From the IMG/VR virus record IMGVR_UViG_3300002334_000064, positions 4,319-68,318 of that record: a stretch of 64,000 nucleotides of DNA, one strand, 5' to 3'. The notes under the pieces are model-generated. The model did no database searches and had not been told where the DNA came from. It was given only the letters and a program-made list of their open reading frames with translations. The stretch comes from a virus. Below, in pieces: positions 1,524-59,351 of the stretch (position 1 is the first letter of the stretch; each line of letters begins with the position of its first letter). Position numbers and translations under genes: made by a program.

Positions 1524-2575
1524 AAACCTTACCGAAAAACCCGAAAATCTCCATGATTGCGGCTCGCAATTGCCGCTCTTGGGAAGACCTGAATCTGAAT
1601 TTATCACCCGGTCTAACGGTTATCATTGGCGACAGTGATAGCGGCAAGACAAATATAATCCGCAACATCAACAGCATTCTGAAAAACGATAGCCGCAAGA
1701 GTTTGACAACACACGGAACGGATGAAGACGCATTCGTACAAGTATGTTTTCAAGAAGCAAATGCGTTCGGTAACTTTTTGCCTGAATGGGTTGTTGAGCT
1801 TTCAAAGGGTGAGAAGATTAATTCGTATTGCACGTTTCGTGTTGTTTACAACCAAAGCAGTTACGAAGAACAACCTGAACATGATTTTATAGACAAGTCA
1901 GAGTATGATTCAGTAGGTTCTTCAGTGCCCGACGAGATATCGAAGGTACTTCGGATTGGTCCGGTTGATCTTGGTGGCGAGTCTGTTGATTTCAATGTTG
2001 CGAACCAAAGAGGTGGATTGTTTGGTGTTGACGATACACCCGCAAGGTTTGCAAAGATCATCGGCGCGGTGTCTGGGATATCAACGGTATTCTCGGCAAT
2101 CAAGAGCGGTAACAGTACGTGCCGTGAAATCCGATCAAAGATGAAACACGAAAAAGTTACGCGTGACGAATTGGTTGAAAAGATCGAACAATCGGAAACC
2201 AGTTGGAATGTTGCGGTGACTCAAGAGAACATTGAGACGGCATCGTGTAAGGTCGAAAAGATTGAAGCGATACAGTCAGACATTCAGAAACAAGAAGGTT
2301 GGCGGGATAGATACCGCAAAGGCGTTGAGAAAGGTACACGTTATAGAAAAATCGCAAACGTGAATACAGACAACCTTTCACGCTCGCTCGGCAAGCTCAA
2401 AGTATCAGAAGACAAACTTCATCAAATGATCGACTGGATGAAGCGGCGCGTTAGCCAACATCATTTGATAAATACTACAGCCGAAGAGATCGAGCATATG
2501 AAAAAGAACTTGAAAGACGTACAACAAGAGTTGAGCGAGTTTGAATCTTGCCCACTATGTGGCGGGGAAATATGA
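1520..2575 (+). CDS. SbcC/Rad50-like ATPase, N-terminal half only (ends at zinc hook)
   Basis: LNLSPGLTVIIGDSDSGKTNI Walker A, Q-loop region, coiled coil, terminal CPLCG; no signature or Walker B. Confidence 0.85.
   Translation: MKTLPKNPKISMIAARNCRSWEDLNLNLSPGLTVIIGDSDSGKTNIIRNINSILKNDSRKSLTTHGTDEDAFVQVCFQEANAFGNFLPEWVVELSKGEKINSYCTFRVVYNQSSYEEQPEHDFIDKSEYDSVGSSVPDEISKVLRIGPVDLGGESVDFNVANQRGGLFGVDDTPARFAKIIGAVSGISTVFSAIKSGNSTCREIRSKMKHEKVTRDELVEKIEQSETSWNVAVTQENIETASCKVEKIEAIQSDIQKQEGWRDRYRKGVEKGTRYRKIANVNTDNLSRSLGKLKVSEDKLHQMIDWMKRRVSQHHLINTTAEEIEHMKKNLKDVQQELSEFESCPLCGGEI
1555..1571. repeat. 17-bp palindrome copy (GATTGCGGCTCGCAATT), inside the SbcC-like CDS
   Basis: One mismatch to AATTGCGGCTCGCAATT. 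Confidence 0.85.
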
Positions 2576-3651
2576 TGTTGAAGATTGGTGTATTCGGTGA
2601 CGTGCATATGTCGGAATATGGCCCCGCGTCTCGCAAGAGATATCTAAACTGTCTGATTGAAAAATTCTTTCAGATAGAAGAATTCGATAAACAGTTCAAG
2701 CCCGATGTGTGGGTTTGTCCGGGCGACTGGTTTCACTCTAAGACACGTGCTACTCATTACGAGGTGAGCACCCTTATTGACTGCCTAACCAGTGTGACAG
2801 AGCGTACGGGCGAACCAGTGCTAACCATTGTCGGCAATCACGACTTGGACGGGGATAACCGGCAATCGATAAACAAACAACCGGTGAGTGTCTTAGCCGC
2901 GAGCGGCGTTGTTAAATTTGTGGATATGAAAACTGGCGATCCAAACTACATCGAAAAAGACGGTGAGTCTTACGCGTTCGTTGGGATTCCTTGGGATAGA
3001 AACTTGACGGATTCCGCAGACTTGAGGACCAGAATATCCACGGCGTGTTTGTCAGAAATAGCGGTTGCGAAATCGAACGATATAAATCTTGGCGGCATTA
3101 TTGTTATTTGTCATTGCGACGTGCGACCGTTCAAGACAAAAGATTTTTCGTTGCAAATACCGAATCTTCCGAGCACTGCGAACATACAAGGACGGAATTT
3201 TAAAACGCCCGCTTCTGGAAACAGTATTAACGGCGTGCCAATTATGCTCATCAATGGTCACTTGCACGACCAACAGAAATTTGTATCTGGTGATCGCCTT
3301 TCCGGGCTTTGGACCGGTTCGCTTATGCGTACAAGTCGCAAGGATGACATTGAGCCTACGATATACATGGCAAGGATAAGCGCGAGCAACACGCCATGCA
3401 TGAAGTGTGCTAAAACAATACTTGAGTCTTTGCCTATGGATAAAGCGTTTAGCAGCAAAGTAGACAGTACGGAAGAGATTACCCATAATGGCGGGTTGGA
3501 TGATTTCGCAAACGCGTTGCTAGTAAACGATGATGAAAACAATGAAGACTTATCGGTTACCGTTGACCGAGTATCAAAGCAATTCGATTTTGATGATGAT
3601 GCAGTGAGTACCGCTAAACTTCTTTTGGAATCCGTTGAGATAGTTGGGTAA
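2572..3651 (+). CDS. SbcD/Mre11-like metallophosphoesterase nuclease
   Basis: GDVH, GDWFH, GNHD, NGHLH and GSL motifs; follows the SbcC-like gene. Confidence 0.9.
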   Translation: MMLKIGVFGDVHMSEYGPASRKRYLNCLIEKFFQIEEFDKQFKPDVWVCPGDWFHSKTRATHYEVSTLIDCLTSVTERTGEPVLTIVGNHDLDGDNRQSINKQPVSVLAASGVVKFVDMKTGDPNYIEKDGESYAFVGIPWDRNLTDSADLRTRISTACLSEIAVAKSNDINLGGIIVICHCDVRPFKTKDFSLQIPNLPSTANIQGRNFKTPASGNSINGVPIMLINGHLHDQQKFVSGDRLSGLWTGSLMRTSRKDDIEPTIYMARISASNTPCMKCAKTILESLPMDKAFSSKVDSTEEITHNGGLDDFANALLVNDDENNEDLSVTVDRVSKQFDFDDDAVSTAKLLLESVEIVG

Positions 3652-4277
3652 TGGCTAAACGTAGAAAGAAAGTTGTTTCAAAGAAACGCCGAAGCGTTCG
3701 CGCTGAGGTTGTGGAAAAACCGGTTTCTAAAAAACTTCCGCCTATTGAGTTTTACGTTCCACCAAGTCAACATCGGAAGCTTGGGCGGTACAAGTACGAA
3801 GTTATTGCAGAAGCTTTTTACTTGGAAATGAATCTGAGTCTTCGTGAGTTTTGCGAGAAGTATCATCTGACGTACGAGGTTGTCAGAAAACACCCGCGAC
3901 TTAATCCGAAACTACGAAGCGCTTCCGCGTTCGCTTCTAAGTCAAGGTCTTATCAATCACTACTTGCGTCGGTCAAGATTGATACAGATATTTCGATTGC
4001 ACGGTTTCAGAAACAATTGATAACAAACATGGGCCTTGTTGATGCATTGCAACGATGGTGCGAATCGAAGATCGTGTTGAACACGGACAACGGCAGAGTT
4101 GCAAACACCACATTACCCATAGGTCAAGCCTCAGCCGTTTCGCGGATACTTAAAACATGTTCCGAAGTCATCGTTACAAACTACGAATACATCAACGAAC
4201 TTGAAGCTGATATTGCTACCGAAGAAAAGATCAAACCGAGCTTCGTTGTTGAAGAAAAGAAAAGGATAGAAAAATGA
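3651..4277 (+). CDS. Hypothetical protein with basic N-terminus and HTH-like segment
   Basis: SLREFCEKYHLTYEVVRKH resembles a helix-turn-helix; start overlaps the previous stop. Confidence 0.6.
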   Translation: MAKRRKKVVSKKRRSVRAEVVEKPVSKKLPPIEFYVPPSQHRKLGRYKYEVIAEAFYLEMNLSLREFCEKYHLTYEVVRKHPRLNPKLRSASAFASKSRSYQSLLASVKIDTDISIARFQKQLITNMGLVDALQRWCESKIVLNTDNGRVANTTLPIGQASAVSRILKTCSEVIVTNYEYINELEADIATEEKIKPSFVVEEKKRIEK

Positions 4278-5071
4278 ATATTCAATCAGTAGTAAGCCAG
4301 ATGAAAGACCGCAATTTCGTTGTAAACGCTTGCGGCGGATTGCTCGCGCATCCGTCCAAGCCGAACAAGAAACGGTTCCGATACAACGAAACATCGGATA
4401 AGGCCGGGCAGATTCCGAATGAGCATGAAATATGCGCGGTTGCTTGGTTGGCTCAAAGAGTACATCAAGCAAAGAGACGATCTGGTGACGAATACTACAT
4501 TTCAAACTTGTTAGCGATTGATGATAAGTTTGGCTTGCTCTCGTCCATGTTCTGTATGCAACACTGGTCCAGAATCAAGGATGTTGTGCTTGCATTTTCA
4601 AATATGCCTGAACCGCACGGTATCGGCTTAGGTATGAATGTTGAAAGTGCCGAGGTACGAAATGCGTTTGACAACATCGCAACTTGGGGTGTTGATTCGC
4701 TCGCACCCAAAGGCCACCCATCGAAAACGCTACTGCATCGAATCTGGTTCGGTACTGACCTTGACAAGGTGCATAAGAACGGGCAACAGTTCGATTATGA
4801 ATGGATTATCAGTTGTACGCCTTGGGGTAATTTGATTGTCGATGCACCGTTTAAAATTACTTGGGTTGAAACCAAAGAGTTAGGCGATGAACTGGAAAAG
4901 CAACTTGAACCAAACTTTGACGGTTCAAGCGCCCGCATTCTTGATCGCCTGTTCTTTGAGTATAAAAAAGAGATCGTGAGTACCGAGCCGGGAAAGCTAG
5001 AAAGTTCTGGTACTAGATGGGATGCGGGTATGAGTGTTACTGACGATGAAATTGTTGGAATGGAAGAATAG
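4274..5071 (+). CDS. Hypothetical protein
   Basis: 265-aa ORF with ATGA overlap to the upstream gene. Confidence 0.7.
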   Translation: MNIQSVVSQMKDRNFVVNACGGLLAHPSKPNKKRFRYNETSDKAGQIPNEHEICAVAWLAQRVHQAKRRSGDEYYISNLLAIDDKFGLLSSMFCMQHWSRIKDVVLAFSNMPEPHGIGLGMNVESAEVRNAFDNIATWGVDSLAPKGHPSKTLLHRIWFGTDLDKVHKNGQQFDYEWIISCTPWGNLIVDAPFKITWVETKELGDELEKQLEPNFDGSSARILDRLFFEYKKEIVSTEPGKLESSGTRWDAGMSVTDDEIVGMEE

Positions 5072-5098
5072 AATTTGAAGGACTAAAACAGGCTCGTG

Positions 5099-5115
5099 AA
5101 TTGCGAGCCGCAATT
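5099..5115. repeat. 17-bp palindrome copy (AATTGCGAGCCGCAATT) at the 5' end of thyX
   Basis: Exact consensus. Confidence 0.95.
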
Positions 5116-6057
5116 GTTGATCTGAAAGGTGTTGTTGTGACTGGACAATTAAGAACTGTTGAGCGTATCCACTTAGATAGCGAAGACACGTATGATGTGC
5201 TTTGCTCTAGCGAGTGGGGATACGCACTAGAACGCGGGCAGTACGTCAATCTCGTTGACTGTATGCCTCGACTGGTTGATCTATCAGACGGTCAACCCAA
5301 GACAATCGAGCACGCTATATGCGATGCGGCAAGGGTCTCGTACAGCGGAGGAACAAAGAAGACCCGGAACAACGCCGGGTTGATCCGCTACATGCTGAGA
5401 CACAAACACACTTCACCGTTTGAAATGGTGAAGTTCAAATTCTCTGTCTGTTGTCCTTTGTTTGTTGCCCGCCAATGGGTACGTCACCGAATGTCGAATA
5501 CAAACGAGGAATCTGGTAGATACTCGGAACTTCGGATTGACAATCAATTCTTGCCGATGGAAGTGAGAGCCAACGACGATAAAAACAAACAGGCAACCAG
5601 TCAAATTGTGGGCGAGGGTGACGCTGATTGGTTTGTCCAAAAGCTTATGAGTGTTCAAGAGTACTCTTCTGACTTGTACCTTGAGGCTGTTCGGGAGCGT
5701 GGTATAGCAAGGGAGCAGGCGCGTTGCCTTCTAGGTGTAACGGTGCTCACCCGGTTCGTGTGGTGTATTGATCTTCACAACCTGTTGCACTTCTTGACGC
5801 TGCGACGTGACCCACACGCACAGAAGGAAATCAGAGACTTCGCGGATGGTATCTATTCACTGATTGGTTCGTTGGTGCCTGATACGATCGCGGCGTACGA
5901 GGATTGTATTTTGAATTCAATCACATTAACGCAAACAGAGATCAACGCGATTGTTTCGGTTGGGCTGCAAGACCCGAGCATTCTGAATCAAAAAGGGTTT
6001 GAAGGTCTGAAGACATTGGCAGACAGAACAAGCACGAACAAACAGGAAATTATCTAG
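5101..6057 (+). CDS. thyX: Flavin-dependent thymidylate synthase (start uncertain)
   Basis: AARVSY, RHKHTSPFE, RQWVRHR..NEESGRY signature, REQAR, HAQKEIR. Confidence 0.95.
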   Translation: MRAAIVDLKGVVVTGQLRTVERIHLDSEDTYDVLCSSEWGYALERGQYVNLVDCMPRLVDLSDGQPKTIEHAICDAARVSYSGGTKKTRNNAGLIRYMLRHKHTSPFEMVKFKFSVCCPLFVARQWVRHRMSNTNEESGRYSELRIDNQFLPMEVRANDDKNKQATSQIVGEGDADWFVQKLMSVQEYSSDLYLEAVRERGIAREQARCLLGVTVLTRFVWCIDLHNLLHFLTLRRDPHAQKEIRDFADGIYSLIGSLVPDTIAAYEDCILNSITLTQTEINAIVSVGLQDPSILNQKGFEGLKTLADRTSTNKQEII

Positions 6058-6702
6058 ATGAAAACAATTGCGTTTATCATGGGTTGTACATGTGTCGGTA
6101 AGTCTTCTTTCTTGGAGTACTGCCAATCTCATTATCCGAACAAGGTCGGTCTAGTTGAGGTCGGCAAGACGTTACGAGCGAAGTATCCACCAGAGCACTT
6201 CAAAGGCCAAGCCGCGCCGGAACACACGAAACAAGAGGCTTGGCAGATTTGCGAATCAACCGTCAAGAAGCACGCGAGCGAAGGAAAGCAACTGATACTT
6301 GTTGACGGTCAACCAAGATCAACGCACCAAGTAGAGCAGTGTGTAACGCGGTTCTCTGATTTATGTATGCCGATATGTAAATCAGGAATACCTGTTAATG
6401 ATTGGTTTAGTTTGGAATTTATATACTTTGATGCGTCTTCAGAGCAGCGCGAAGAGCGTATGAAAATAAGACACCCTAGCAATGAACACGCTTACGATTC
6501 GGCTAGTTACGCGCTAACCGCACAAAGACAAGTGAACGACGAGCGTACTTACCTTCGTGTTTTGGTTGATCTAGAAATTCATAATCGAAAATTTACCGTT
6601 GTCAAAGTACCGACGATACAAAGTAAAGCCGATCTTGATGATTTCCATTTTTCTACTATGTGTAATCTTTTTGGTCCCTTTGGACCTGCAAGGCATAATT
6701 GA
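6058..6702 (+). CDS. Nucleoside monophosphate (adenylate kinase-like) kinase
   Basis: P-loop GCTCVGKSS; LVDGQPRS matches the AK DGFPR motif. Confidence 0.7.
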   Translation: MKTIAFIMGCTCVGKSSFLEYCQSHYPNKVGLVEVGKTLRAKYPPEHFKGQAAPEHTKQEAWQICESTVKKHASEGKQLILVDGQPRSTHQVEQCVTRFSDLCMPICKSGIPVNDWFSLEFIYFDASSEQREERMKIRHPSNEHAYDSASYALTAQRQVNDERTYLRVLVDLEIHNRKFTVVKVPTIQSKADLDDFHFSTMCNLFGPFGPARHN

Positions 6703-6703
6703 T

Positions 6704-7168
6704 ATGAACGATACAAAAAAACCAACGCTTCACATGTGCATCGGGTTACCGTATTCCGGTTTCGATGAGTGGGCAAAGCGTACCGGTATGCCAATGGTTC
6801 GACTGGATAGCCTGCGCAACGTGATGCACGGTCAGAAGTTTTGGAAGAACGCCGAGCCTTCGGTATGGTCCAACGCTAAATTGTTTGTGGGTTCTCTTTT
6901 CGATGCGGGGCATTCAGACGTTGTTCTTGTTGCTCCGATGTGGTTGCGTAAACATCGGTCACGTTGGAGTGATACCAGATGGGATCGCACCGCGATACGG
7001 TTTGAGGCAGATTTCTTTGAGTGTCAGAAGCGAGCAGTTGCGGCAGGGAACACCGGCGTTATTCAGGTGATGCAACGTATGGCTAACTCGTTTGATGAGC
7101 CTGATGCGGCGTATGAGGACTTTCTGAGTGTTGAGCGTGTGAGTATGACTAACGCACTCAGAGAATAA
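6704..7168 (+). CDS. AAA_33/PNK-like P-loop protein with degenerate Walker A
   Basis: LHMCIGLPYSGFDEW (GKST replaced), DSLR, LFDAGHSDVVL, CQKRA pattern of small phage kinases. Confidence 0.6.
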   Translation: MNDTKKPTLHMCIGLPYSGFDEWAKRTGMPMVRLDSLRNVMHGQKFWKNAEPSVWSNAKLFVGSLFDAGHSDVVLVAPMWLRKHRSRWSDTRWDRTAIRFEADFFECQKRAVAAGNTGVIQVMQRMANSFDEPDAAYEDFLSVERVSMTNALRE

Positions 7169-7192
7169 TTTCAAAATAGATCATTTCACCCA

Positions 7193-7228
7193 TTGCACTA
7201 CCCGATAAACACGGTAAGGTAGATGTGT
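7193..7228 (+). promoter_or_regulatory. Repeated sigma70-like promoter family, copy 1
   Basis: TTGCAC-16 nt-TAAGGT then AGATGTGT; shares CCGAT..ACGG spacer and downstream AAATGGGT with copies at 18975, 19361, 34782. Confidence 0.7.
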
Positions 7229-7262
7229 GATAAATGGGTATCACAAAATGAAAGGACAACAA

Positions 7263-7604
7263 GTGAGCGAAGATACGACCAAGATGCTAAAGCTTGGTGA
7301 AGAATGGATTGAGATCGGCGTTACCGCCGATACAGGATGTAGCGTATACGTGAAGCCATTCACGACCGTCAACAAATGTGATATTGGATCATCTATCGAA
7401 GACCTAACGGCACACGATCAACTTTGGAGCGCTCAGGATATCGCAGACCAGTTGTTGGTCTTGCAAAACATGAAGAGCGGAACCGCCTTGTACTTTGAAA
7501 CTCGGTATCTCGGTGATCGTGGTAACGGGTTGGTTACAGGTGACGATTGGGCGCAGAAGTCCCGCACATCTTCACGGGTTGCGAGTCTTGGAACGCTGGC
7601 CTAG
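7263..7604 (+). CDS. Hypothetical protein (stand-alone promoter-gene-terminator unit)
   Basis: GTG start after AAAGGAC; bounded by promoter and terminator. Confidence 0.65.
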   Translation: MSEDTTKMLKLGEEWIEIGVTADTGCSVYVKPFTTVNKCDIGSSIEDLTAHDQLWSAQDIADQLLVLQNMKSGTALYFETRYLGDRGNGLVTGDDWAQKSRTSSRVASLGTLA

Positions 7605-7613
7605 TAAGAGGCT

Positions 7614-7649
7614 ACCCGCTAAAGGTTGAGATGCCTTTGGTGGGTTTTT
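7614..7649 (+). terminator. Rho-independent terminator
   Basis: ACCCGCTAAAGG/CCTTTGGTGGGT stem followed by a T tract. Confidence 0.75.
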
Positions 7650-7750
7650 CTTATTGCTATACAACCCAATAGTGTTCAAAGACATTATTGGGTTTTAATT
7701 GGCGCGTGTTGTGCGTGCGACAGATGTTGAGCGTTTGCGAAGGGCACGAA

Positions 7751-8284
7751 ATGGGTAAGGCTAAAAAAGTCTGCGAGTTGCGGGTTGTTACTAAAATCTC
7801 GATTGGAAACTATGAGGACAATCAGATGTGTTTGTCTAGCGATGTGGTTTGGCGGTTGTGCCATCTGACAGCGAGGCCAAAGGAAATCCAACAAGAAAGA
7901 AATGGTGTGCTTGAAACATACCGAACTGCCGTTGTTATCTATTCTTCTGCATACGATCTTTTTCGAGAAATGTTTTCTTTTCCTAAATCGTGCCGCGCTG
8001 AAAATTCGGTTTCGTTTATCACGCTTTATGACGAACCGGTGAAAAACAGTTTGGAACTTACGCTGGTGAGTTCATTGCATTCAGATTTGGTTCACACCCC
8101 TGCGGCAAAAGTCTTGTGTAAACAAGAGCACTTGGAACCCAATTTTCGGAGAGATGGCCCGGTTATATCTATGCGGAGTTTCGGAACCGACGCTTTCACT
8201 CAATGGGTAGGCCGAGCGTTCGAGATTGCCGGTAAGACAGCCAACGGCGACCATATGTACATGTGCTGGGAATATGACGCCTGA
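7751..8284 (+). CDS. Hypothetical protein
   Basis: ORF 7688-8284, likely ATG at 7751. Confidence 0.6.
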   Translation: MGKAKKVCELRVVTKISIGNYEDNQMCLSSDVVWRLCHLTARPKEIQQERNGVLETYRTAVVIYSSAYDLFREMFSFPKSCRAENSVSFITLYDEPVKNSLELTLVSSLHSDLVHTPAAKVLCKQEHLEPNFRRDGPVISMRSFGTDAFTQWVGRAFEIAGKTANGDHMYMCWEYDA

Positions 8285-8300
8285 ATTGCGAGCCGCAATT
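8284..8300. repeat. 17-bp palindrome copy overlapping a TGA stop
   Basis: AATTGCGAGCCGCAATT exact. Confidence 0.95.
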
Positions 8301-12629: not shown

Positions 12630-13121
12630 TTGAGTGACGAACAACAGAACAAAGGAATTGAAAAGATGTTTGCTACAACCAAGGACGGCAAGAAGGTAAG
12701 AAGCGGGGTTGAAGTCTATTGCCCTGTATGGGTGCTGTTGCAATGCACACCGGGCGAATTCCCCAACAAGAGAAAGCCGCTCTACTCGAAAAGAGATCGG
12801 TCTAAGAATGAACGTATGAGACCAAAGAAGTTCCATCTGATAATTGCGGCTGGCAATTGCGTTGTAGATGACAGTTGGCGCGGTAACGGGTACATCGGAG
12901 CTGGATTATCTGGCGTATCCACAAGTTCAATCGCCTCAAAGCTGAGAGTACCGATGAGTTCGTGCTATGAGGATTACTCTGTTCTGAACGATTTGGTGTG
13001 TAATCCTTCGTTCATGGGAGAGATTGGGAAGCCGCACATCGTGCTAGGCGAGATCATGGAGCCGGACCTACAACACAGTACTAAGTACCTGTTGCAGGTT
13101 GACCGGTCACAAGGGTTTTAA
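12630..13121 (+). CDS. Hypothetical protein (TKDG..V..G..V family)
   Basis: TTKDGKKVRSGVEVY resembles the repeats in the ORF at 15710. Confidence 0.6.
   Translation: MSDEQQNKGIEKMFATTKDGKKVRSGVEVYCPVWVLLQCTPGEFPNKRKPLYSKRDRSKNERMRPKKFHLIIAAGNCVVDDSWRGNGYIGAGLSGVSTSSIASKLRVPMSSCYEDYSVLNDLVCNPSFMGEIGKPHIVLGEIMEPDLQHSTKYLLQVDRSQGF
12842..12858. repeat. 17-bp palindrome variant (AATTGCGGCTGGCAATT), inside a CDS
   Basis: One mismatch to consensus. Confidence 0.8.
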
Positions 13122-15425: not shown

Positions 15426-15713
15426 ATGACACGCAAGAAAGACCTAAGGCTGAGGCGTAGAGCCGAGAAGCGCCGATGGAAGGACCGAGGTAAGAAGGAT
15501 CGACGCACACAACGCGGCTACCCTTCAACGATCGTCTTCCACGATATCGGGCCGCTCGGTACGGCTGAGGCAGAGCGTGAGTATCAGAGAGGTCGTCACG
15601 GGATAGATTGGCGGGGGTTTGTGACTATTAGCGCGTTCAGGTCACTTGTGAGGGTCACCGGAAGATTGACCAGCAAATTGGGAAGCTTTTTCAGAAGGTA
15701 CGATGACCAATGA
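15426..15713 (+). CDS. Basic hypothetical protein
   Basis: Arg/Lys-rich N-terminus; ATGA overlap with the next gene. Confidence 0.55.
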   Translation: MTRKKDLRLRRRAEKRRWKDRGKKDRRTQRGYPSTIVFHDIGPLGTAEAEREYQRGRHGIDWRGFVTISAFRSLVRVTGRLTSKLGSFFRRYDDQ

Positions 15714-16412: not shown

Positions 16413-16429
16413 AATTGCGAGCCGCAATT
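16413..16429. repeat. 17-bp palindrome copy, intergenic
   Basis: Exact consensus. Confidence 0.95.
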
Positions 16430-16455
16430 CAAAATCTCAAGGTCAATATACAGGT

Positions 16456-17641: not shown

Positions 17642-18775
17642 ATGACAAAGAACAGATGCAGGGTATTTCGCGGGGATTGCGTAAACCTTGCGTCCAGACT
17701 GCCGGACAACTACGTACACAGTATCGTGACCGATCCGCCCTACGGCATAAAGTTCATGGGGAAAGATTGGGATGGTCCGGGCGGCGTAGCTTTCCAAAAA
17801 GAGACTTGGGAAGAGTTCTTAAGGGTTCTAAAGCCCGGCGGTCACGTGCTCGCGTTCGGCGGAACAAGAATGCATCATCGGTTGATGGTTGCGATTGAAG
17901 ATACCGGGTTTGAGATACGCGATTGTTTGATGTGGTTGTATGGCTCGGGCTTCCCTAAGTCTCACAACGTCAGTAAAGGGATTGACAAAGCGGCGGGGGC
18001 AACCGGAACGAGAGGTTCGCTAAAAAGAGGCGGGGATCGATTAGCGAGTCTTGAAAATGGCAAGCGAGACGGCAAAGGACGATGGGGAGATGAGGTAGGG
18101 AGGAACCCTTATACTACAATTCCCGCAACCGATGCCGCAAAACAATGGGACGGATGGGGCACCGCACTAAAGCCAGCATGGGAACCGATCGTACTCGCCC
18201 GTAAACCGTTCAATGGCACCGTTGCAAAGAACGTACAAGAGCATGGTACGGGCGCAATGAACATTGACGGGTGTAGGGTTGGGACGGATGATAGTCTTGG
18301 TGGTGGAGCCACTAAGGGGAAAACAGTTTGTTCTCATAACGGGGAGGCTTGGGATCGGCCTTGGAAACATAATGATGATGCGAGGGAATCCCACGCATCC
18401 AGAGTTAGAGACAACGTAGTAAAAGCCGAAATGCTTGGCCGCTGGCCCGCAAACCTAATACTTGATGGGGAAGCTGGTGCAATACTTGATGAATCTGTAA
18501 AAGAATCACCATCCCGGTTCTTCTACTGCCCAAAGACGAATAAAAAAGAACGCAATCTAAATGGGTGTGACAACAGACACCCGACCGTTAAGCCGACAGA
18601 GCTTATGCGGTATCTCGTGCGACTCATCACGCCACCGAACGGAATCGTTCTTGATCCGTTTTGCGGATCGGGTTCAACTGGCCTAGCGTGCCAACGCGAA
18701 AATATGCGCTTCATCGGTTTCGACAAAGACATAGAATCCGTGCAATGGGCACGCAAGAGAATGGGGATAGACTAA
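17642..18775 (+). CDS. DNA N4/N6 methyltransferase (beta class)
   Basis: VTDPPYG catalytic motif before HPTVKP and LDPFCGSGSTG SAM motif. Confidence 0.93.
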   Translation: MTKNRCRVFRGDCVNLASRLPDNYVHSIVTDPPYGIKFMGKDWDGPGGVAFQKETWEEFLRVLKPGGHVLAFGGTRMHHRLMVAIEDTGFEIRDCLMWLYGSGFPKSHNVSKGIDKAAGATGTRGSLKRGGDRLASLENGKRDGKGRWGDEVGRNPYTTIPATDAAKQWDGWGTALKPAWEPIVLARKPFNGTVAKNVQEHGTGAMNIDGCRVGTDDSLGGGATKGKTVCSHNGEAWDRPWKHNDDARESHASRVRDNVVKAEMLGRWPANLILDGEAGAILDESVKESPSRFFYCPKTNKKERNLNGCDNRHPTVKPTELMRYLVRLITPPNGIVLDPFCGSGSTGLACQRENMRFIGFDKDIESVQWARKRMGID

Positions 18776-19757: not shown

Positions 19758-19774
19758 AATTGCGGCGTGCAATT
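19758..19774. repeat. 17-bp palindrome variant (AATTGCGGCGTGCAATT)
   Basis: Two mismatches; same TTTAC 5' flank as the 20345 copy. Confidence 0.75.
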
Positions 19775-43772: not shown

Positions 43773-43795
43773 AAACCCCCTAGCGGGGGTTTTTT
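43773..43795 (+). terminator. Rho-independent terminator after the major capsid gene
   Basis: AAACCCCC-TAGC-GGGGGTTTTTT. Confidence 0.85.
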
Positions 43796-43822: not shown

Positions 43823-43839
43823 AATTGCGAGCCGCAATT
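43823..43839. repeat. 17-bp palindrome copy, intergenic
   Basis: Exact consensus. Confidence 0.95.
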
Positions 43840-43841: not shown

Positions 43842-44501
43842 ATGAGGTTAAAAATGGAACCATCAAGATACGAAGAGATTTACGAACCGGCTTATCGGGG
43901 CGGGTATCACCGCGACGGGAGTTACACACACTCAAAGCCTCTTCTAACGCGCGTGCTTGAAATGTATCCAAACACCAAGTCAGCTATTGATTTCGGGGCG
44001 TCTAACGGTGCCGCTATCCGATGGTTGCAAAGTCGGAACGTGATAGCGACGGGGATTGAGATATCAAGCACCGCTGTTGCGATTGCCGCGAATCACAGAA
44101 CAATGATTGCGAACGGTTCGATATGTGAACCAAACGACTTCAAAACGAATGTTGTTGAACTGGCATACTCGACGGATGTAATGGAGCACTTATCCGTTGA
44201 AGATATTGACAAGTGCATATCTGAACAGGTGCGGGTTTCAAATCATCTAGTTGCGGCGAAGATTGCCACAAAGAAGGCTCGCGTACTTCAGCCGTTCCGG
44301 CATATGGGGGCCGGGTTCAATCCTCATTTGACAGTTCAATCAATACGCTGGTGGTGGGCAAAGTATATGCAACAAGGACTTGAATTGATTTGGACGGATG
44401 GTAATGACAGTGCGATATTCCGCAAGATCGACAGACCACAACCTTCTGAACTGATTACGAACGTTTCTGAGAGCCTAGATACATCCTTGGAGGTGTCGTA
44501 G
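43842..44501 (+). CDS. Class I SAM-dependent methyltransferase (non-DNA type)
   Basis: AIDFGASNG, GIEIS, STDVMEHL, HLTVQ..WW. Confidence 0.85.
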   Translation: MRLKMEPSRYEEIYEPAYRGGYHRDGSYTHSKPLLTRVLEMYPNTKSAIDFGASNGAAIRWLQSRNVIATGIEISSTAVAIAANHRTMIANGSICEPNDFKTNVVELAYSTDVMEHLSVEDIDKCISEQVRVSNHLVAAKIATKKARVLQPFRHMGAGFNPHLTVQSIRWWWAKYMQQGLELIWTDGNDSAIFRKIDRPQPSELITNVSESLDTSLEVS

Positions 44502-44505: not shown

Positions 44506-45168
44506 ATGACACACACGTACGACCATAAAGATCAGGTTGCTCTTATAGTGGCTTCAGGGCCGTCGTCGGGAATGATTACGCAACAGTACCTTGAGAAGTT
44601 CCGAGAGCACTATAAGGAACAAGGTACGGTCATCATCGGAACAAACAACGTGTGGAACGTTGCGAGCGGGTCGCCATTGTTTGCGGATTACGGGGTGATC
44701 CTTGACCGCGACTTCTTGGCAAAGAACCAAGGGCCGATGAATACTTACCGTAAACTCAATCCGGCGTTCATTCCGGTGTTGGGATTCAAACCGCGCAACG
44801 ATGTTTTAGGCAAGTGGCACCAAATAAACATCCTCACGGATCGAACGGCAGAGTTTGAACCGGCGTATGAATTCGGGCAGTATTTCCACGGGTTATCTTC
44901 CGGTGTTGCTGCTATACAATTCGCGCTACATTGCGGGGTTTCAAAGATACTTTTGATTGGGCATGATCTTTGTTGTCACGAAGGAAAGACACACGGAAAC
45001 GGCAAGAGAAATAATATCGAGTTAGATAAGAATTACCCGCAAGGCCGTGATATGATGATTGGGTACATGTGGGTGTACGAACAGGCAAAGAGTCTAGGTG
45101 TAGACGTTCTGAATCTTTCACCTATTTCTGAATTAAACTTTATCCCAAAACCAGTAAACGCGGAGTAG
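44506..45168 (+). CDS. Maf/DUF115-like (nonulosonate-transferase-related) Rossmann protein
   Basis: ALIVASGPS, IIGTNN, SSGVAAIQFALHCGVSKILLIGHD, VLNLS. Confidence 0.7.
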   Translation: MTHTYDHKDQVALIVASGPSSGMITQQYLEKFREHYKEQGTVIIGTNNVWNVASGSPLFADYGVILDRDFLAKNQGPMNTYRKLNPAFIPVLGFKPRNDVLGKWHQINILTDRTAEFEPAYEFGQYFHGLSSGVAAIQFALHCGVSKILLIGHDLCCHEGKTHGNGKRNNIELDKNYPQGRDMMIGYMWVYEQAKSLGVDVLNLSPISELNFIPKPVNAE

Positions 45169-48906: not shown

Positions 48907-48923
48907 AATTGCGAGTCGCAATT
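48907..48923. repeat. 17-bp palindrome copy (AATTGCGAGTCGCAATT)
   Basis: Core AGT variant, intergenic before the tape measure gene. Confidence 0.9.
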
Positions 48924-48940: not shown

Positions 48941-51900
48941 ATGCCATCCGAAGCAGATGCAGGCAGTGTAGTTGTTAGCTTTAGGGCGGATGTGCGTAAA
49001 GCACTTTCGTCCTTTGAAGAATATAATCGTGGATTGCGGAAATCTACAGAGCAGACAAAGAGGTCTGTTAAATCGATTCGTGCCCAACTAGATAGTGTGA
49101 ATACTAGCGGTGCCATCGGTGCCGGTGCTGCCGCTGCCGGTAATGGTCAAGGTATCGCGTCACTCGGTGCTAGTCTCGCCATAGCTCGACGTGTGGGCGG
49201 TGTAACAGACGGCATCGTCAATAACTTCCAGACACTAACCATCGTTGCCGATCAAGCATTCGAGGCGGCTGGTACTTCGGTCAATGGATATTCGAGAGCA
49301 TTGACCGAAGCTGGTGAAAAGTCACGCCTTGCGTTGACCGTAATGAATCGTTCGATTGCTTTACTTCCCGCCGGTGTAAGTTCTAGCGTTCAACAATCTC
49401 GTGTTTCGTTCACCAAGTTCAACAAAGACTTCGGTGAATTGGCATCGAAGACACAAACAAACGTCACGAAAATACGCAAGAGTTTGAACACCCTGAACTT
49501 GATCGTTGCGGCTGGTGTCGGTGTGGGTGTGCTGAAACTTGGCTCAGACTTTGATAAGGCGATAACGGCGGTTCGTTCGGTTACAAAAGAAACGGTTGAA
49601 GAGTTCGAGTCTGTACGTCAGAGCGTGATTGCGATTGCGAACGATGTAGGCGTTTCCGCTGTTGATGCTGCCGTTGGTTTGAATGATATTGTGCAATCCG
49701 GGTTTGAGGGTCAAGAAGCGTTTGACCTACTCACGGCTTCCGCTCAAACAGCACGTGCGGGCCTGATTGAAACGTCACTCGCAACGAGCGTGCTTGTGGG
49801 TACGTTGAACGCGTACCAGTTATCCGGTAGTGATGCCGCCGAAGTATCTGGTAAGCTCATCAAAGCCGTTGACGTTGGTATCTTCACGTTCCAAGAACTG
49901 GCAACGAGTATCGGCAACGTCACGCCGATTGCGTTTGCTGCCGGTGTCGAACTTGAAGAGCTTCTAGCTATCTTGTCATCGCTCACTTTGAGTGGTCTAG
50001 GATTCACCGAAGCAACCACGCAGTTGCGAGCCGCAATTGTCGCACTGCTGAAACCACAAGAACAAGCGGCTAAGAGAATCAAGGAGGTTCTTGGTGTATC
50101 CGCTGAAGCCGCAATTCGTGTCAACGGTTTCGCTGACACGTTGCAACGTCTGGTTGAATCGGCCAATGGTTCCAACGAAGCGCTTGCGAAAATCTTCCCG
50201 AACATCCGAGCGTTGCAAGGTCTTGTTTCTCTTGCCGCTACAGGGTTTAAAGACCTGAACAGCACCATTGAAGTACTTGGCAATTCTGGTGCGGCTTCAC
50301 TCAAGCGTGTTCTTGAGATTCAATCCGGTTCGTTCTCTCAGCTTGCGGGTGAGATTCGTAGACAACTCGGCAACCAGTTGATTAAGGTGTTTGAGAAAAA
50401 CAGAAAAACAATCGTTGGTATGACAGCAAGTGTTCTTGAGTTTACGAAAGCAAACCGTGATAGCGTGTTTGCACTCGTTGCGATTGGCGCTGCCATTGGT
50501 GTCGTGGCGGTTGGGCTGCTCGTATTGAAGGGTGCGTTGTTTGTAACTGAGGTTGCACTAGCTGGTGTAGTAAGAGTGTCGAAAACCCTTGCGGCCATTC
50601 AGAGCGGCGAGCTTGCAAAGTCGTTTGCTTCAACCGCTTTAAAGCTTCGCAATTTGGTCTTCTCTCAAACCGCGTACGCTGCAAACTCTGCCGTTCTGTT
50701 GTCTAGCACTAAGGGACTTTCAAGAGCGTTCCCTGTATTTACCAAAGCCGCGATCCAATCAACCAATGCTATCAAGGCTCTAAATATTGCGCAGATCGCA
50801 TCCAATCTTTCTTTCAAGGTTGGAACGGCAAGAGTAATTGCACACGCAACCGCACTTAAAGCCGCTGCCGTTGCCGCTGTTATTGCAACTGGTAATTTCC
50901 TTGCAATGAGTGTTGCCGCTGCCGCTGCTGTTTCACCTATTGCCGTGATTGCATTAGCGGCAGGCACCGCGTTGGTTGCGTTCAATATCGGTCGTTGGTT
51001 ATCGCCTTGGAAACGAGCTAACGATGAAGCTGAAAAACAGATTGAAGCACTAGAAAAAATCAGTGATATTCAAGACGGGATACAACAAAGACTCAGTAGG
51101 CGCGGTGCTATTACTCCCGAATCTGATACCGCTATTCGGCAAATTAAAACCATTCAAGAACTTCGTAATGAACTGGCCGATGCTCTTACGGCGTACAATG
51201 TAGGTATTGATGGTGCCGCTGCCAAGGTCACAGGGTTGCGAAACGAGCTTGCAAAAGTTGGTGAGACATTTAATAGCGATGACCTTCGCAAAGTTCTCGG
51301 TGATCGGATCGAAGGTCTTACCCAGATTGTTATAACTGAACGCGCGAAACTTGCGGAAGCGGCTGGTGAGGCTATCGCTTCATCCGCATCTTCGCAGGTA
51401 CTACTTGTAAGCGCGGGGTTTAAAGAAGGTGACATATTAAAGGCAACAAAAGCGTTGCGTGATCTTGATTTGATATTGACACAGATGGCCGAAGATTCTA
51501 ATAAAAGTACTGCGAATCTCGAACAGTTCGCCGCACTGCTCGCAGAGACAGAGACAAATACGCTCGGTGCTCGTGATGCTCTTGATAGTTTCGTTGACAG
51601 TCTGAGAACTGCGAACCTTTCACCGTTCCAACAATCTTTGAAATCCGTAATGGAAGACGAACAGCAGCTTGAAAAAGAATTCGAGAATCTAGCGAGTCAA
51701 CTACGCAACACGCTTGAGAATATCATCCCGCCCGAGACAATCAATCAACTGATTCCGAAGATTGCACCGAACCCGGACATTGCACAACGTCTGTTGTTGG
51801 GTGGAACGAAAGAAGAGATTTCAAAATTCTTGCTTGACGCAATCGTTGCGTCCCGAGACGATATCAAATCGCTCTTTGATTTCTTGCGTCTGGAAATCAC

Positions 51901-53609: not shown

Positions 53610-54134
53610 ATGGCTTCGGTGGTTCCATATCTATTGACGTTCAAAGGGAATTGGGCGGGGTCTACTGAAGTCGCACTTTCCTTTGAAAACGGTTCACACG
53701 AATCTGTTTCGGGTGGGGGTCTTCCCGCGTTTATCACTCCGCAACAAAACCCGGTTGGTGTGTACTATTGGAACATCAAAGGTTTCTTCGCGGAAACAGA
53801 GAGCCAAGTACACGACAATGCGGCACAGACACAAGCTCTTGTTGTAAGTGAATTGGGTTTAGCTGACACAATAACGGAACATTTGGGTTTCTTCCCGCCG
53901 ATTGAAAAGCGGTTAGCACGCGGTGGTGTTACGCTTTGGTCACCACATGATAACGCCGGTTCACTGAAGCTCTATCGAGGCCCAACAGGTGACTACGCGG
54001 GCGGGAACGCGGTAACCCTTTCGAGCGAATGTTGGTTGAAAAAATACAACGCGACTACAGGCGGAAGAAACGGGATTGCAACAATTGATTACCAATTTGT
54101 TTCAAGTAGAAACCCCGTCGATTACATTGTCTGA
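53610..54134 (+). CDS. Putative distal tail protein
   Basis: Synteny after the tape measure gene. Confidence 0.55.
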   Translation: MASVVPYLLTFKGNWAGSTEVALSFENGSHESVSGGGLPAFITPQQNPVGVYYWNIKGFFAETESQVHDNAAQTQALVVSELGLADTITEHLGFFPPIEKRLARGGVTLWSPHDNAGSLKLYRGPTGDYAGGNAVTLSSECWLKKYNATTGGRNGIATIDYQFVSSRNPVDYIV

Positions 54135-54150
54135 ATTGCGACTCGCAATT
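54134..54150. repeat. 17-bp palindrome copy (AATTGCGACTCGCAATT) overlapping a TGA stop
   Basis: Core ACT variant. Confidence 0.9.
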
Positions 54151-57391: not shown

Positions 57392-58690
57392 ATGATTCAG
57401 AAAAATCCTAGAACTTCAGATGTTGACAAATGGAATAATTTGAGCGAAGACGAGCGGGTAGATATTTGTTTACCTATCTGGGAAGACCGTAATGAATGGG
57501 GATACAATATTGATAAACCCGCACACCATACAACGGTTGCGAAAAGAAGATCGTCGTGCGACTCTTGCAATCACCAGACAGATGTTGATGGCGGCAGTTA
57601 TTGCAATTTGATTGCGAGTCGTTCAGGAACGATTCAGTTTCTAGATGACGATCTTCTCAGAACACCAAAACTTGATTGCCCTGTGCGTGCAAAGGGGTTT
57701 TCAAACAACTTCAAAGATAACCCGTCTGTTTCACTCGTCATTGCTTGCTTGAATGAGGGAAGCGATCTAGAAGCAACGATTGCGACAGTACTAGCCGCCA
57801 ATACAAAGCCGGATGAAATCTTGCTCGTTGACGACGGGTCAGTTGAACCTTGTAATCATCGGGTTGCGCAAATGATCGCGTATGCAAACGTTGATTTTAA
57901 GTACATCCGGCATACGAAAAGAATGGGTTCGTCAGTATCCAAGAACGTAGGGTGTGCGAAGTCTTACGGCGACGTTGTGATTGTGGTTGATTCTCATATG
58001 CGGTTCCCGTTGAACTGGTTGGATATGATGTTGGCCGACTTGAGAGAAAACCCTACATCGATAATTGCCGCTGCATCAATCCCGATGGATTCGATATCTA
58101 AATGCCGGGTGCTCGCGGGTACGGATTGGACGTACGATGACGACACCGCCAACTATAAACTCAGGTGGTCATTAAGCCACATCAGAGCGAACGCACCTTA
58201 CCGCCAGCCGGGTTTGATGGGTGCTTGCTATGGAATGACCAGAGATACGCTAGATTGGCTTGAGGGCTATGCTCCCGGCCTCACAGGGTACGGTATCGAA
58301 GAAGAGTGGTTATCTTACCGCGCTCATCTGCTCGGGATCGGCATACGGTTTAGTAGACAGTGCAAAGTAGAGCACAAATATAGTCGCACACCGAACCGAT
58401 TGGATTGTCAAGGCACACAACCGCCTATGTGGGAAATGTACTGGAACCGTCTGGTGCTCATGTGGGGCATAAGCGGTTTCCCGCCCGAACCAAACGCCGG
58501 TTACTTTGACAACATGCTTGATGCACTATCGACCAATGGGGACAAAACGATGAGCGACCAACTCATTAAATGCGTTGAAGAGAACTTCTTGAATATCCGA
58601 GAAATGATGTATCGGCTCAACGCCAAGGTCAATCGAATCGATCCAGAACGACGAAAACACATCAACAAAGAACAGTTTGAAGAGGTCTGA
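57392..58690 (+). CDS. GT2/GT-A glycosyltransferase (ppGalNAc-T-like motifs) with N-terminal Cys-rich domain
   Basis: VSLVIACLNEG, EILLVDDGS, VVDSHM (DxH), GYGIEEEWLSYR; N-terminal CDSC..C..CP. Confidence 0.85.
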   Translation: MIQKNPRTSDVDKWNNLSEDERVDICLPIWEDRNEWGYNIDKPAHHTTVAKRRSSCDSCNHQTDVDGGSYCNLIASRSGTIQFLDDDLLRTPKLDCPVRAKGFSNNFKDNPSVSLVIACLNEGSDLEATIATVLAANTKPDEILLVDDGSVEPCNHRVAQMIAYANVDFKYIRHTKRMGSSVSKNVGCAKSYGDVVIVVDSHMRFPLNWLDMMLADLRENPTSIIAAASIPMDSISKCRVLAGTDWTYDDDTANYKLRWSLSHIRANAPYRQPGLMGACYGMTRDTLDWLEGYAPGLTGYGIEEEWLSYRAHLLGIGIRFSRQCKVEHKYSRTPNRLDCQGTQPPMWEMYWNRLVLMWGISGFPPEPNAGYFDNMLDALSTNGDKTMSDQLIKCVEENFLNIREMMYRLNAKVNRIDPERRKHINKEQFEEV

Positions 58691-58696
58691 GAGCCT

Positions 58697-58719
58697 AAAA
58701 CCCCGCAAAGGGGTTTTTT
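58697..58719 (+). terminator. Rho-independent terminator ending the late operon
   Basis: AAAACCCC-GCAAA-GGGGTTTTTT. Confidence 0.8.
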
Positions 58720-58824
58720 ATTGGAAAAAATCACAAAAGGGTTCAGATTGACACGTATTTCTGACCGATGAAAGGGCAATATATAGTGTCTATGCCAGAG
58801 ATATAAAGTAAAGAAAGAACAACG

Positions 58825-59121
58825 ATGACAAAGCAAGCGGAAATAAAGATCGTGTCGAAACCAATCGATTGGAAAAAACGGGTCAAAGAAGCGAACGAAA
58901 TGTTTCGACGTTCTGACAATATCCGAAAAATGGCTATGGAGAAATTCCTATCCGCGTTCCCGGTAGGTTGCGACGTGACTTGGATGCACGGACCCTACCC
59001 GCAACGCGGACAAGTCTTGGAGCATATCGAATGTCACGGCGATTTATGGGTAAAAAACAGCAATACAGGAAAGACTGTAAAGGTTTCGGCGTACAACATG
59101 ACACAGTTTATTGAGCGATGA
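58825..59121 (+). CDS. Hypothetical protein
   Basis: FPVGCDVTW..WVKNSNTGK SH3-like pattern. Confidence 0.65.
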   Translation: MTKQAEIKIVSKPIDWKKRVKEANEMFRRSDNIRKMAMEKFLSAFPVGCDVTWMHGPYPQRGQVLEHIECHGDLWVKNSNTGKTVKVSAYNMTQFIER

Positions 59122-59351
59122 AAAATCCGATGAAAAACGTACTCACCAGCCCGGCCTTCTATATCATCATTTGTGCGTTCGTGTTTAGCGTTAGCGCTGC
59201 GTTTAAACTAGACGCGTGGGGAGCTACGATCGTCGTAAAGGTTTGGGTGCCAGTAATGACGTGGTTGATTATCGCTTCGATGGCGATGTTCGTAGATGCC
59301 GATACCAAAGCGACAATTGCGACTCGCAATTCAAAAGAACGGAGACGATAA
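59118..59351 (+). CDS. Small membrane protein
   Basis: Two TM segments; ATGA overlap. Confidence 0.6.
   Translation: MKNPMKNVLTSPAFYIIICAFVFSVSAAFKLDAWGATIVVKVWVPVMTWLIIASMAMFVDADTKATIATRNSKERRR
59315..59331. repeat. 17-bp palindrome copy (AATTGCGACTCGCAATT), inside a CDS 3' end
   Basis: Core ACT variant. Confidence 0.9.

Follow-up and report, generated by a model that had tools for sequence, protein, structure and literature searches.

We analysed a window of 64,000 nucleotides, corresponding to positions 4319-68318 of the 68,318-bp IMG/VR record IMGVR_UViG_3300002334_000064 (G000), which carries an array of the 17-bp palindrome AATTGCG-NNN-CGCAATT. Every large open reading frame (ORF) of the window lies on the + strand, and Pfam family scans indicated a siphovirus-type phage, with virion genes for a large terminase, a MuF-like protein and a 1555-aa tape-measure protein, and with a scaffold match that was weak and below the family cut-off. 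The ORF at 37886-39670 (594 aa) encodes the portal according to the annotation of its database relatives and has no Pfam match. The window also encodes a SNF2 helicase and a class II ribonucleotide reductase, and further family matches were obtained to ThyX, a GroES-like protein, CsrA, three DNA methyltransferases and a flap endonuclease; recombination-type matches in the record comprise UvsX-, SbcC-, SbcD- and RuvC-like proteins. CheckV estimates the record to be 100% complete. However, ORFs are cut at both of its ends, a ParB-like ORF at the 5' end (record positions 1-776) and the flap-endonuclease ORF at the 3' end (window positions 63101-64000), and the record is therefore not complete. 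Its last letters (window 63986-64000) resemble an Illumina adapter.

Within the window, the palindrome is present in 18 copies when up to two mismatches are allowed, compared to 0.57 expected and to a largest count of 2 among shuffles. Ten copies are exact, a form for which not a single match was obtained in 100 shuffles, and the remaining eight (1555, 12842, 19758, 26312, 28284, 34134, 37852 and 50022) contain one mismatch. An earlier interpretation made from the letters of the window (the sequence-only reading) had reported 18 copies, all of which start exactly where it had placed them, although eight of them are imperfect. A 19th copy lies upstream of the window at record position 2716, and a control search with the reversed pattern gave no match. 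The centre triplets of the 18 copies are AGC (10), GCT (4), ACT (2), AGT (1) and GCG (1), so that 11 centres read AGY and six read RCT. The sites, in window coordinates and with their neighbouring genes on the + strand, are the following:

1555-1571, one mismatch (GATTGCG GCT CGCAATT): 32 nt past the stop of the UvsX-like gene, in the 5' end of the exonuclease ORF
5099-5115, exact, centre AGC: intergenic, 28 nt past a stop; the ThyX gene starts (GTG 5137) 21 nt downstream
8284-8300, exact, centre AGC: overlaps the TGA stop at 8282-8284, with the next start 47-56 nt downstream
12842-12858, one mismatch, centre GCT: inside a 163-codon ORF
16413-16429, exact, centre AGC: intergenic, 8 nt past a stop and 26 nt before ATG 16456
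19758-19774, one mismatch, centre GCG: intergenic, 26 nt before ATG 19801
20345-20361, exact, centre AGC: intergenic, 41 nt past the stop of a 167-aa gene and 87 nt before ATG 20449
22788-22804, exact, centre GCT: overlaps a TGA stop, with a candidate start 30 nt downstream
26312-26328, one mismatch, centre AGC: 77 nt past a stop; ATG 26329 adjoins it, and ATG 26344 has a GGAG
28284-28300, one mismatch (arm AATTGCA): overlaps a TAA stop, with ATG 28334 33 nt downstream
34134-34150, one mismatch (arm AATTGCA): 27 nt past a stop, in codons 20-25 of a GT29-like ORF
37852-37868, one mismatch (arm AATTGCA): overlaps the TGA stop of the terminase gene, with the portal ATG 17 nt downstream
41010-41026, exact, centre GCT: overlaps the stop of the MuF-like gene, 15 nt before a DnaT_2-like gene
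43823-43839, exact, centre AGC: after the capsid gene and a terminator-like hairpin (43773-43792), 14 nt before ATG 43854
48907-48923, exact, centre AGT: 17 nt before the tape-measure ATG 48941
50022-50038, one mismatch (arm AGTTGCG): inside the tape-measure gene, translated QLRAAI
54134-54150, exact, centre ACT: overlaps a TGA stop, 16 nt before ATG 54167 of a gene for a 1073-aa tail protein
59315-59331, exact, centre ACT: in the last codons of a 77-codon ORF, 23 nt before ATG 59355

Site 20345 follows the same 167-aa gene whose start is preceded by site 19758. As the sequence-only reading had stated, six copies (8284, 22788, 28284, 37852, 41010 and 54134) overlap a stop codon, and translation through sites does yield the peptides LRAAI, LQAAI and IAARN.

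The palindromes of the record have a mean spacing of about 3.4 kb, and 7 of the 17 gaps in the window measure 3.1-3.75 kb. The coefficient of variation (CV) of the gaps, which had been calculated by hand as about 0.4, amounts to 0.41 in the window and to 0.40 when the whole record is taken. Under uniform placement the mean CV is 0.95 and a CV as low as the one observed arises with P = 2.5e-5 to 5e-5, and when 19 positions are drawn from 86 crude gene ends (junction null) the P for the gap CV is 2e-5. Over the full record the spacing is thus far more even than chance (P = 2e-5 to 5e-5), and the largest gap is only 5,850 bp (P 0.0015-0.003). Unrelated viral records of 56-90 kb, ten of the longest with a chance match, contain one copy each at no more than one mismatch over their whole length. 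Among the matches listed when the viral collection was scanned with the motif alone (L005-L084), there was a single site per locus, counted once on each strand; three of these loci later turned out to be contigs of lineage B, introduced below. The palindrome array of the record is real, and it is placed non-randomly.

Relatives were reached by portal, capsid or ParB alignments. Together with the window's record they form six lineages: A is the record itself, B comprises G002, G003, L123 and L131, C is L122, D comprises G001 and L125, E is G004 and F is G005, and lineages B to F are uncultured siphovirus lineages. The portal alignment led to 4 viral loci and then to 5 metagenome loci, and a single portal protein used as query on viral contigs gave no match. 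No relatives were found in 185,579 species genomes, a near-identity DNA search with 20 kb of the window against cultured phages gave no match, and a portal protein search of cultured phages returned only three Rhizobium phages at 23% identity. The sites of the six lineages, in order of increasing G+C content (GC) of lineages A to F, are as follows:

Lineage A (GC 47%): AATTGCG-NNN-CGCAATT, as described above
Lineage B (GC 48-49%): the same arms, AATTGCG and CGCAATT, with centres CGG or CGA, at 10 distinct sites over overlapping contigs
Lineage C (GC 58%): the same arms with centre TGA, at 6 exact sites in 21.7 kb
Lineage D (GC 58-59%): GGATTTG-TCA-CAAATCC, at 5 sites in 17.6 kb
Lineage E (G004, 88.8 kb, GC 64%): TATTTCA-CCA-TGAAATA, at 31 sites
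Lineage F (G005, 55.5 kb, GC 68%): TGTTTCT-NNN-AGAAACA, at 15 sites, with none in 20 shuffles

The portals of lineages B and C are about 41% identical to that of the window, and the capsid of G005 is 73% identical to that of G004. Even spacing recurs in both long relatives: in G004 the CV is 0.57 (P 5e-4 against the uniform and 1e-3 against the junction null) with a largest gap of 5,433 bp (P 3e-4), and in G005 the CV is 0.41 (P 2.4e-4). In all six lineages the head module has a site directly upstream of its DnaT_2-like gene, and in A, B, C, E and F there is another one directly upstream of the tape-measure gene. That junctions are kept while the site sequence changes is expected if the sites and a trans-acting reader co-evolve. 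Sites also lie within unusually long genes, namely the tape-measure gene in lineage A and, in lineage B, a gene for a 1322-aa MuF fusion and the portal gene, which fits a selection for coverage of the DNA and not for gene starts. More distant capsid relatives mostly lack an array: among 80 capsid-related loci searched for an exactly repeated palindrome with 6-base arms, 67 had none, 10 had two copies, two had three copies and one, a piece of G004, had six. By counts of palindromes and 10-mers the array is also absent from L132, L133 and L124, of which 12 kb are covered. Separately, four distant capsid relatives (about 32% identity; L204, L175, L197 and L155) contain 2-3 copies of a GC-rich 7-3-7 palindrome, TCCGAGC-NNN-GCTCGGA, in 10-15 kb, which could represent a terminator as well as an array.

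With respect to genes, 14 of the 19 copies in the record begin between -2 and +80 nt from the end of a + strand gene, a zone that makes up 10.4% of the record (binomial P 1.3e-10). The clearly intragenic copies (50022 in the tape-measure gene, 12842, 34134 and 1555) are all mismatched, and the 10 exact copies lie in gaps or at gene ends. A plausible start codon is found 0-33 nt downstream of 12 of the 18 window copies, and for nine of these 12 (5099, 19758, 26312, 37852, 41010, 43823, 48907, 54134 and 59315) a Shine-Dalgarno-like word stands between site and start. The palindromes might therefore be operators at gene starts for another dimeric phage regulator, for example a small ORFan, with the ParB-like protein unrelated to them. 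Such operators would also be in line with the coincidence of three sites (12842, 16413 and 20345) with sigma-70-like matches, the second hexamer of which ends on the AAT of the motif, with the fact that most small ORFs have no family, and with conserved promoter-like modules that adjoin sites in two relatives. In G004, modules with embedded palindromes lie on the reverse strand at 2512, 70549 and 76150, and in G005 at 39064 and 43618, where the modules also hold the word ATTCCGGGAAATAT, which resembles a Noc-binding site (NBS). One near-identical module in each of these genomes heads an operon with the ParB-like gene, and the palindrome alongside it would suit autoregulation. However, sigma-70-like and terminator-like matches are no commoner in the window than in shuffles, no palindrome other than those three overlaps a sigma-70-like match, and most late-region sites lack a -10 or a -35. 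Neither the even spacing nor the sites inside long genes are expected of operators, no other sequence-specific double-stranded DNA-binding domain was found in the 80 Pfam-scanned ORFs of the record, and the likeness of the sites of lineages E and F to parS, described below, would be a coincidence. We regard operators of an unrelated regulator as unlikely. The absence of a consistent promoter link, proposed by the sequence-only reading, stood insofar as promoter-like matches remain at shuffle level, whereas a consistent link to gene junctions does exist, most sites being located in the short gap immediately upstream of a ribosome-binding site. Another short motif, GGTCAATATACA in two cases and GAATATACA in one, was observed at 16441, 20393 and 22853, that is 11-48 nt downstream of three palindromes and near the next gene start. 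Stoperators of Cluster A mycobacteriophages are asymmetric, follow the direction of transcription and are bound by the immunity repressor of a temperate phage. They were ruled against: the sites of the window are palindromic with centres pointing both ways, no integrase or repressor family was detected among the 80 scanned ORFs, and the 185,579 species genomes gave no relative.

Placement between a stop codon and the next ribosome-binding site would also fit an RNA hairpin in a polycistronic mRNA, acting as processing site, 5' or 3' stabiliser, translational operator or boxB-like antitermination site. The location of all genes on one strand is consistent with this possibility, as is the centre of the G004 sites, which is CCA in 24 cases and TGG in two. 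A 95-aa protein encoded at 15426-15713 (pI 11.6) could bind RNA, and its arginine-rich N-terminus brings N-type antiterminators to mind. The pairing of the arms speaks against such a hairpin. In 86 sites from the six lineages, 59 arm pairs are broken and there is no compensatory change, and on the mRNA strand the broken pairs are more often A.C (22) than G.U (9). The hairpin reaches about -6 kcal/mol, and six site contexts fold no better than shuffles (z -0.15 to -1.2). The stem is AT-rich in G004 in spite of the 64% GC of that genome, the orientation of the centre, and hence of the loop, flips at orthologous junctions, and the centre is nearly free in G005 (11 triplets in 15 sites). No palindrome is among the terminator-like sites or has a U-tract, and Rfam gave no match. 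With a weak hairpin and no compensatory arm change, a role as RNA is very improbable. The 95-aa protein was dropped as a candidate N-like RNA binder, since neither Pfam nor PDB (E up to 10) gave a match for it. On the whole, the behaviour of the arms is that of a sequence recognised in double-stranded DNA, and we consider it probable that the palindromes are double-stranded DNA sites for some dimeric protein. Orientation independence, on which the sequence-only reading had relied, holds for the window and fails in G004, where the centre bias may result from copying among sites or from a polar reading.

A candidate for such a reader is encoded by the phages themselves. A six-frame search of G004 with ParB_N revealed two proteins, a fusion of ParB_N with a methyltransferase and a 373-aa protein, and the latter, used alone, matched Noc (E 3.4e-5) and ParB (E 4.7e-4) across ParB_N and the helix-turn-helix (HTH) domain. 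A full HMMER search with the ParB-like family yielded 28 full-length members at E < 1e-30 and 1,883 at E up to 1e-3. The family profile matches Noc (4.5e-25), Spo0J (7.8e-22), ParB (6.7e-21) and KorB (2e-6) over profile positions 89-320, which correspond to ParB_N and HTH, and for an AlphaFold model of the G004 protein (mean pLDDT 82.3) Foldseek ranks Noc, ParB and KorB first. The ParB-like gene of the window's record (record positions 6-773) lies about 3.5 kb upstream of the window and has lost its first ~118 residues at the contig end; the first residue of its ORF aligns with residue 119 of the G004 protein, and from there, the GxxR box onward, the two are homologous with 27% identity (E 8e-18). 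The ParB-like protein of G005 is 62% identical to that of G004, with six differences in the recognition-helix stretch (STSILNRSVTIA in G004 against STPIISKAVAIA in G005). In an alignment of 27 sequences, G122, R125 and A128 (GxxR box) are invariant and N165 and R168 (ENxxR box) nearly so, G000 reading DNLVR where G004 reads ENLVR. In ParB these boxes serve the binding of cytidine triphosphate (CTP) with clamp closure, and the canonical ParB box reads GERRxRA. At their N-terminus the phage proteins have a tail, first lysine-rich and then acidic, that was modelled with low confidence.

The search for partners and for other binders was largely negative. ParA, for which PF13614 was the only family searched, was not found in six frames of G000, G004, G001 and G002, although PF13614 was matched in 14 of 14 control genomes, and none of the 80 Pfam-scanned ORFs of G000 gave a ParA-type match. 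With no ParA partner found, this is not a classical partition system. A six-frame search for HTH_3 gave only a weak match, which lies inside the ParB-like ORF itself, and ten small candidate binders had no match in PHROGs. A scan of viral contigs for ParB relatives returned only G004, G005 and two weak loci; G006 has a weak ParB match over 30 residues and no array. The ParB fragment of G000 as query found no relative in viral contigs or by a word-based homologue search, a pattern scan of the 185,579 species genomes detected no relative of the family, and the G004 protein gave one weak match among cultured phages, under a methyltransferase.

The sites of two lineages resemble those of bacterial ParB and Noc. 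The consensus parS, TGTTTCAC-GTGAAACA, and the consensus NBS, TATTTCCC-GGGAAATA, differ at two positions per half-site according to the sections consulted of PMC7383237. When parS is written as 7-2-7, the arms TATTTCA of lineage E and TGTTTCT of lineage F are each one base off its arm TGTTTCA, and the changed bases occupy the same two positions at which parS and NBS differ. The ParB alignment led to G005, in which an array was found afterwards; being close kin of G004, this genome lends only weak independent support. The residues for parS/NBS specificity named in the same source (PMC7383237), mapped by eye onto the recognition helices of the phage proteins, gave no clean transfer. Taken together, the sequence-conserved arms, the weak hairpin, the even spacing in relatives, the presence of a ParB/Noc-type gene and the near-parS arms of lineages E and F favour what the sequence-only reading had suggested, namely parS-like sites at the DNA level through which a dimeric protein would act over the entire genome. 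In our judgement the palindromes are, with somewhat better than even chances, parS-like loading sites for the phage's own orphan ParB/Noc-type protein, a binding that is predicted from the co-occurrence of array and gene in three genomes and from the likeness to parS.

Instead, the sites might be bound by a protein of the host, for instance its ParB or Noc or some other global regulator, with each lineage copying the motif of its host. A precedent is phi29, which has five parS sites used by the host's Spo0J, as described in the part of PMC2731898 concerned, and the motifs of lineages E and F are near bacterial parS/NBS; motif turnover could follow host switches. However, lineages A, B and C keep identical arms at GC contents of 47%, 48-49% and 58%, which suggests different hosts, and the kin E and F (GC 64% and 68%) differ both in motif and in the recognition helices of their own ParB-like proteins. 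The 7-3-7 spacing is unlike that of bacterial parS/NBS, and all three long genomes carry a ParB-family gene of their own. We think that a host reader is improbable.

Gene products of the phage include UvsX-, SbcC-, SbcD- and RuvC-like proteins as well as an exonuclease, a flap nuclease and three DNA methyltransferases, and the palindromes could be DNA marks for nicks, the initiation of recombination-dependent replication, cruciform cutting by the SbcCD- or RuvC-like nucleases, methylation or module exchange (as linkers), or they could be hairpin promoters of an unrecognised RNA polymerase. Promoters of the single-subunit N4 virion RNA polymerase are DNA hairpins with a stem of 5-7 bp and a loop of 3 nt, a geometry that the 7-bp stem and 3-nt centre would fit. 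No RNA polymerase was recognised among the large ORFs by Pfam, PHROGs or PDB sequence searches, which such enzymes can escape, a 7-bp arm is short for cruciform extrusion, and nothing ties the enzymes listed to the palindrome sequence. For the repeats of Cluster O mycobacteriophages, the authors report few if any rearrangements in the passages available (PMC4351075). We give DNA marks of this kind little credence, and the stoperator roadblocks, nicks and nuclease protection that the sequence-only reading had listed as candidates received no specific support.

Several observations weigh against the proposed loading of the phage's own ParB-like protein. The start codons 0-33 nt downstream of 12 sites would also suit a role in gene expression, and the centre bias of G004 is not explained by a symmetric homodimer on double-stranded DNA alone. 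The arm AATTGCG of the window matches TATTTCA, which has the same 7-3-7 spacing, at 4 of 7 positions (2, 3, 4 and 6), the site of lineage D aligns poorly with parS, and the half-sites of all phage palindromes are one bp further apart than those of parS (7-3-7 vs 7-2-7). On the protein side, the ParB-type matches of the G000 fragment alone are weak: 6 of its 9 PDB hits are to Noc, Spo0J or ParB on the HTH, with E 0.02-0.8, and HTH_ParB in this ORF has an E of 9e-4 per genome and 15.4 bits, under the cut-off. In the phage family the ParB box reads GNTR, with only the G and the last R invariant, so that CTP binding is uncertain. The contigs of lineages B, C and D stop short of the ParB region, leaving the ParB gene seen in the three long genomes, and many small ORFs without any family could hide another binder.

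If the palindromes are read by the ParB-like protein, its dimers would nucleate at each 17-bp site and, by analogy with ParB, Noc and KorB, the protein might then form a closed clamp that slides or spreads along neighbouring DNA. Given sites about 3 kb apart and no gap above ~6-7 kb in three genomes, the whole chromosome would come within reach, which would explain a selection for even spacing; most sites would lie in short intergenic gaps because a fixed 17-mer costs least there. By analogy the system seems closer to an orphan ParB, like Noc with its scattered chromosomal sites or KorB with its many plasmid operators and action over kilobases. As to purpose, the coating might serve genome-wide transcription control or the marking or organising of phage DNA, with global transcription control as by KorB, tethering or organising as by Noc or ParB, and shielding from host systems as the options. 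The wider picture, in which lytic-type siphoviruses of one clade have private parS-like sites laid out over the entire chromosome and a ParA-less clamp coats the genome into a virus-specific nucleoprotein state, is more tentative, and we consider it rather doubtful. If true, the coated state would tell phage from host DNA and control its transcription, protection or handling, and site and reader would co-evolve fast, as the motif changed between relatives with 73% identical capsids.

Apart from the array, the record contains further features. A recombination module at record positions 1047-7969 (window up to 3651), also kept in G004 and G005, comprises an SbcC-like ATPase, MazG, a RuvC-like resolvase, a UvsX-like recombinase, an exonuclease and an SbcD-like nuclease, and no DNA polymerase was recognised. 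The CsrA homologue is encoded at 20675-20896 (PF02599, E 9e-18). An ORF of 1120 aa had no Pfam, PHROG or PDB match, and its Atlas scores of 0.77 are at noise level. Homologues of the window's methyltransferases, including the ParB_N-methyltransferase fusion, are found in G004. The remaining genes are these, all on the + strand:

17642-18775: DNA methyltransferase gene, N6_N4_Mtase
23097-23981: DNA methyltransferase gene, N6_Mtase
23978-24760: DNA methyltransferase gene, D12 class
34076-34768: glycosylation-type gene, GT29-like
43842-44501: glycosylation-type gene, methyltransferase
44506-45168: glycosylation-type gene, MptE-like
57392-58690: glycosylation-type gene, GT2

The four glycosylation-type genes are located within the virion module, which recalls the gene layout described for Cluster O phages.

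Among known systems, Noc with its NBS in Bacillus subtilis is alike in being a ParB_N and HTH protein without a ParA partner that has many palindromes scattered on one replicon, and Noc is the best match of the phage protein family in sequence and in fold. The arm TATTTCA of lineage E is one base from the NBS arm TATTTCC. In contrast, NBS has 16 bp (7-2-7) and the phage sites 17 bp (7-3-7), and the replicon of Noc is a chromosome, whereas the phage replicons measure 55-89 kb and have an even spacing of ~3 kb. Noc possesses an N-terminal membrane helix, as stated in the portion of PMC8429893 consulted; the phage proteins carry the lysine-rich and acidic tail instead. The system of KorB and its operators (OB) on the IncP plasmid RK2 is similar in that a mobile element repeats a palindrome around a replicon of ~60 kb, and KorB is among the fold and profile matches of the phage family. 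RK2 carries many OB sites, and KorB has a partition role together with IncC. KorB differs in that it needs KorA to lock at promoters, in that the OB sequence is another one and in that no even spacing is described for OB. It belongs to the ParB-CTPase family, loads at a short palindrome, slides and acts up to 1.5 kb away, as set out in the text available of PMC11790492. In the case of phi29, host-type parS sites are used by the host's ParB for spore entrapment, again by the part of PMC2731898 concerned; here a ParB-family protein is phage-encoded, the sites are lineage-private and they are 3-6 times more numerous.

Conserved inverted repeats in phiC31 and dispersed centromere sites in N15 are further analogues. 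A layout of evenly spaced, whole-genome palindromes of the ParB type has hardly been described for viruses. Our literature search, which reached neither supplementary files nor most subscription papers, found no phage with such a layout. A 2025 survey reports that the ParB fold is common in phages, mostly in fusions, and its accessible part describes no site arrays (PMC12704722); the same holds for the accessible part of a 2026 study of phage ParB-like activators of thymine dioxygenases, which have no DNA-binding domain (PMC13229309). Microbacterium phages of Cluster EG have 18-bp inverted repeats, GATCAACC-NN-GGTTGATC, in 8-10 copies at the right genome end, which are located in short intergenic gaps, typically 14-22 bp before start codons, and are kept across diverged genomes, according to the sections seen of PMC7302621 and PMC9224216. 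The nearness to starts is shared with the window, where 12 of 18 sites lie at 0-33 nt, and no spacing regularity is reported in those sections for Cluster EG.

The closest likeness is to the Cluster O mycobacteriophages, such as Corndog, whose siphovirus genomes of ~70 kb carry over 30 copies of the 17-bp dyad TGTTCGG-NNN-CCGAACA, many of them between genes and some inside genes, with centres facing either way and with function unknown, in the text of PMC4351075 available. The prediction of its authors was a dimeric protein that binds DNA and has a role other than in transcription initiation; they also noted proteins with ParB-like domains, which that text leaves unlinked to the repeats (PMC4351075). 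The window's array agrees with this description in having a 7-3-7 dyad, tens of copies, either orientation and no promoter tie. The two are the same kind of feature and not a case of common descent, as the phages show no detectable relatedness, and Cluster O sites are denser toward one genome end, whereas those of the window are evenly spaced. Corndog gp90 (L218 9425-10933), annotated as a ParB-like nuclease domain protein, aligned with the phage ParB profile over ParB_N and HTH (hhalign 93%, E 3.4e-7), and the right 24.8 kb of Corndog contain 23 repeats. From this alignment, gp90 may be the reader of the 17-bp repeats of Cluster O.

So far, ParB clamps are known from chromosome and plasmid partition, from nucleoid occlusion (Noc) and from plasmid gene silencing (KorB). 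A virus without ParA that has 15-31 evenly spaced sites for its own ParB would, if the proposed loading holds, represent a new use of the ParB switch, and would provide a natural case of loading sites whose spacing appears to be under selection. The fast change of motif among close kin, at the positions that separate parS from NBS, would offer a natural experiment on the evolution of DNA-binding specificity. Loading of a ParB-type protein may likewise account for the 17-bp repeats of Cluster O, which have been a puzzle since 2015. This answer is testable; Cluster O phages are cultured, and their gp90 matches the phage ParB family.

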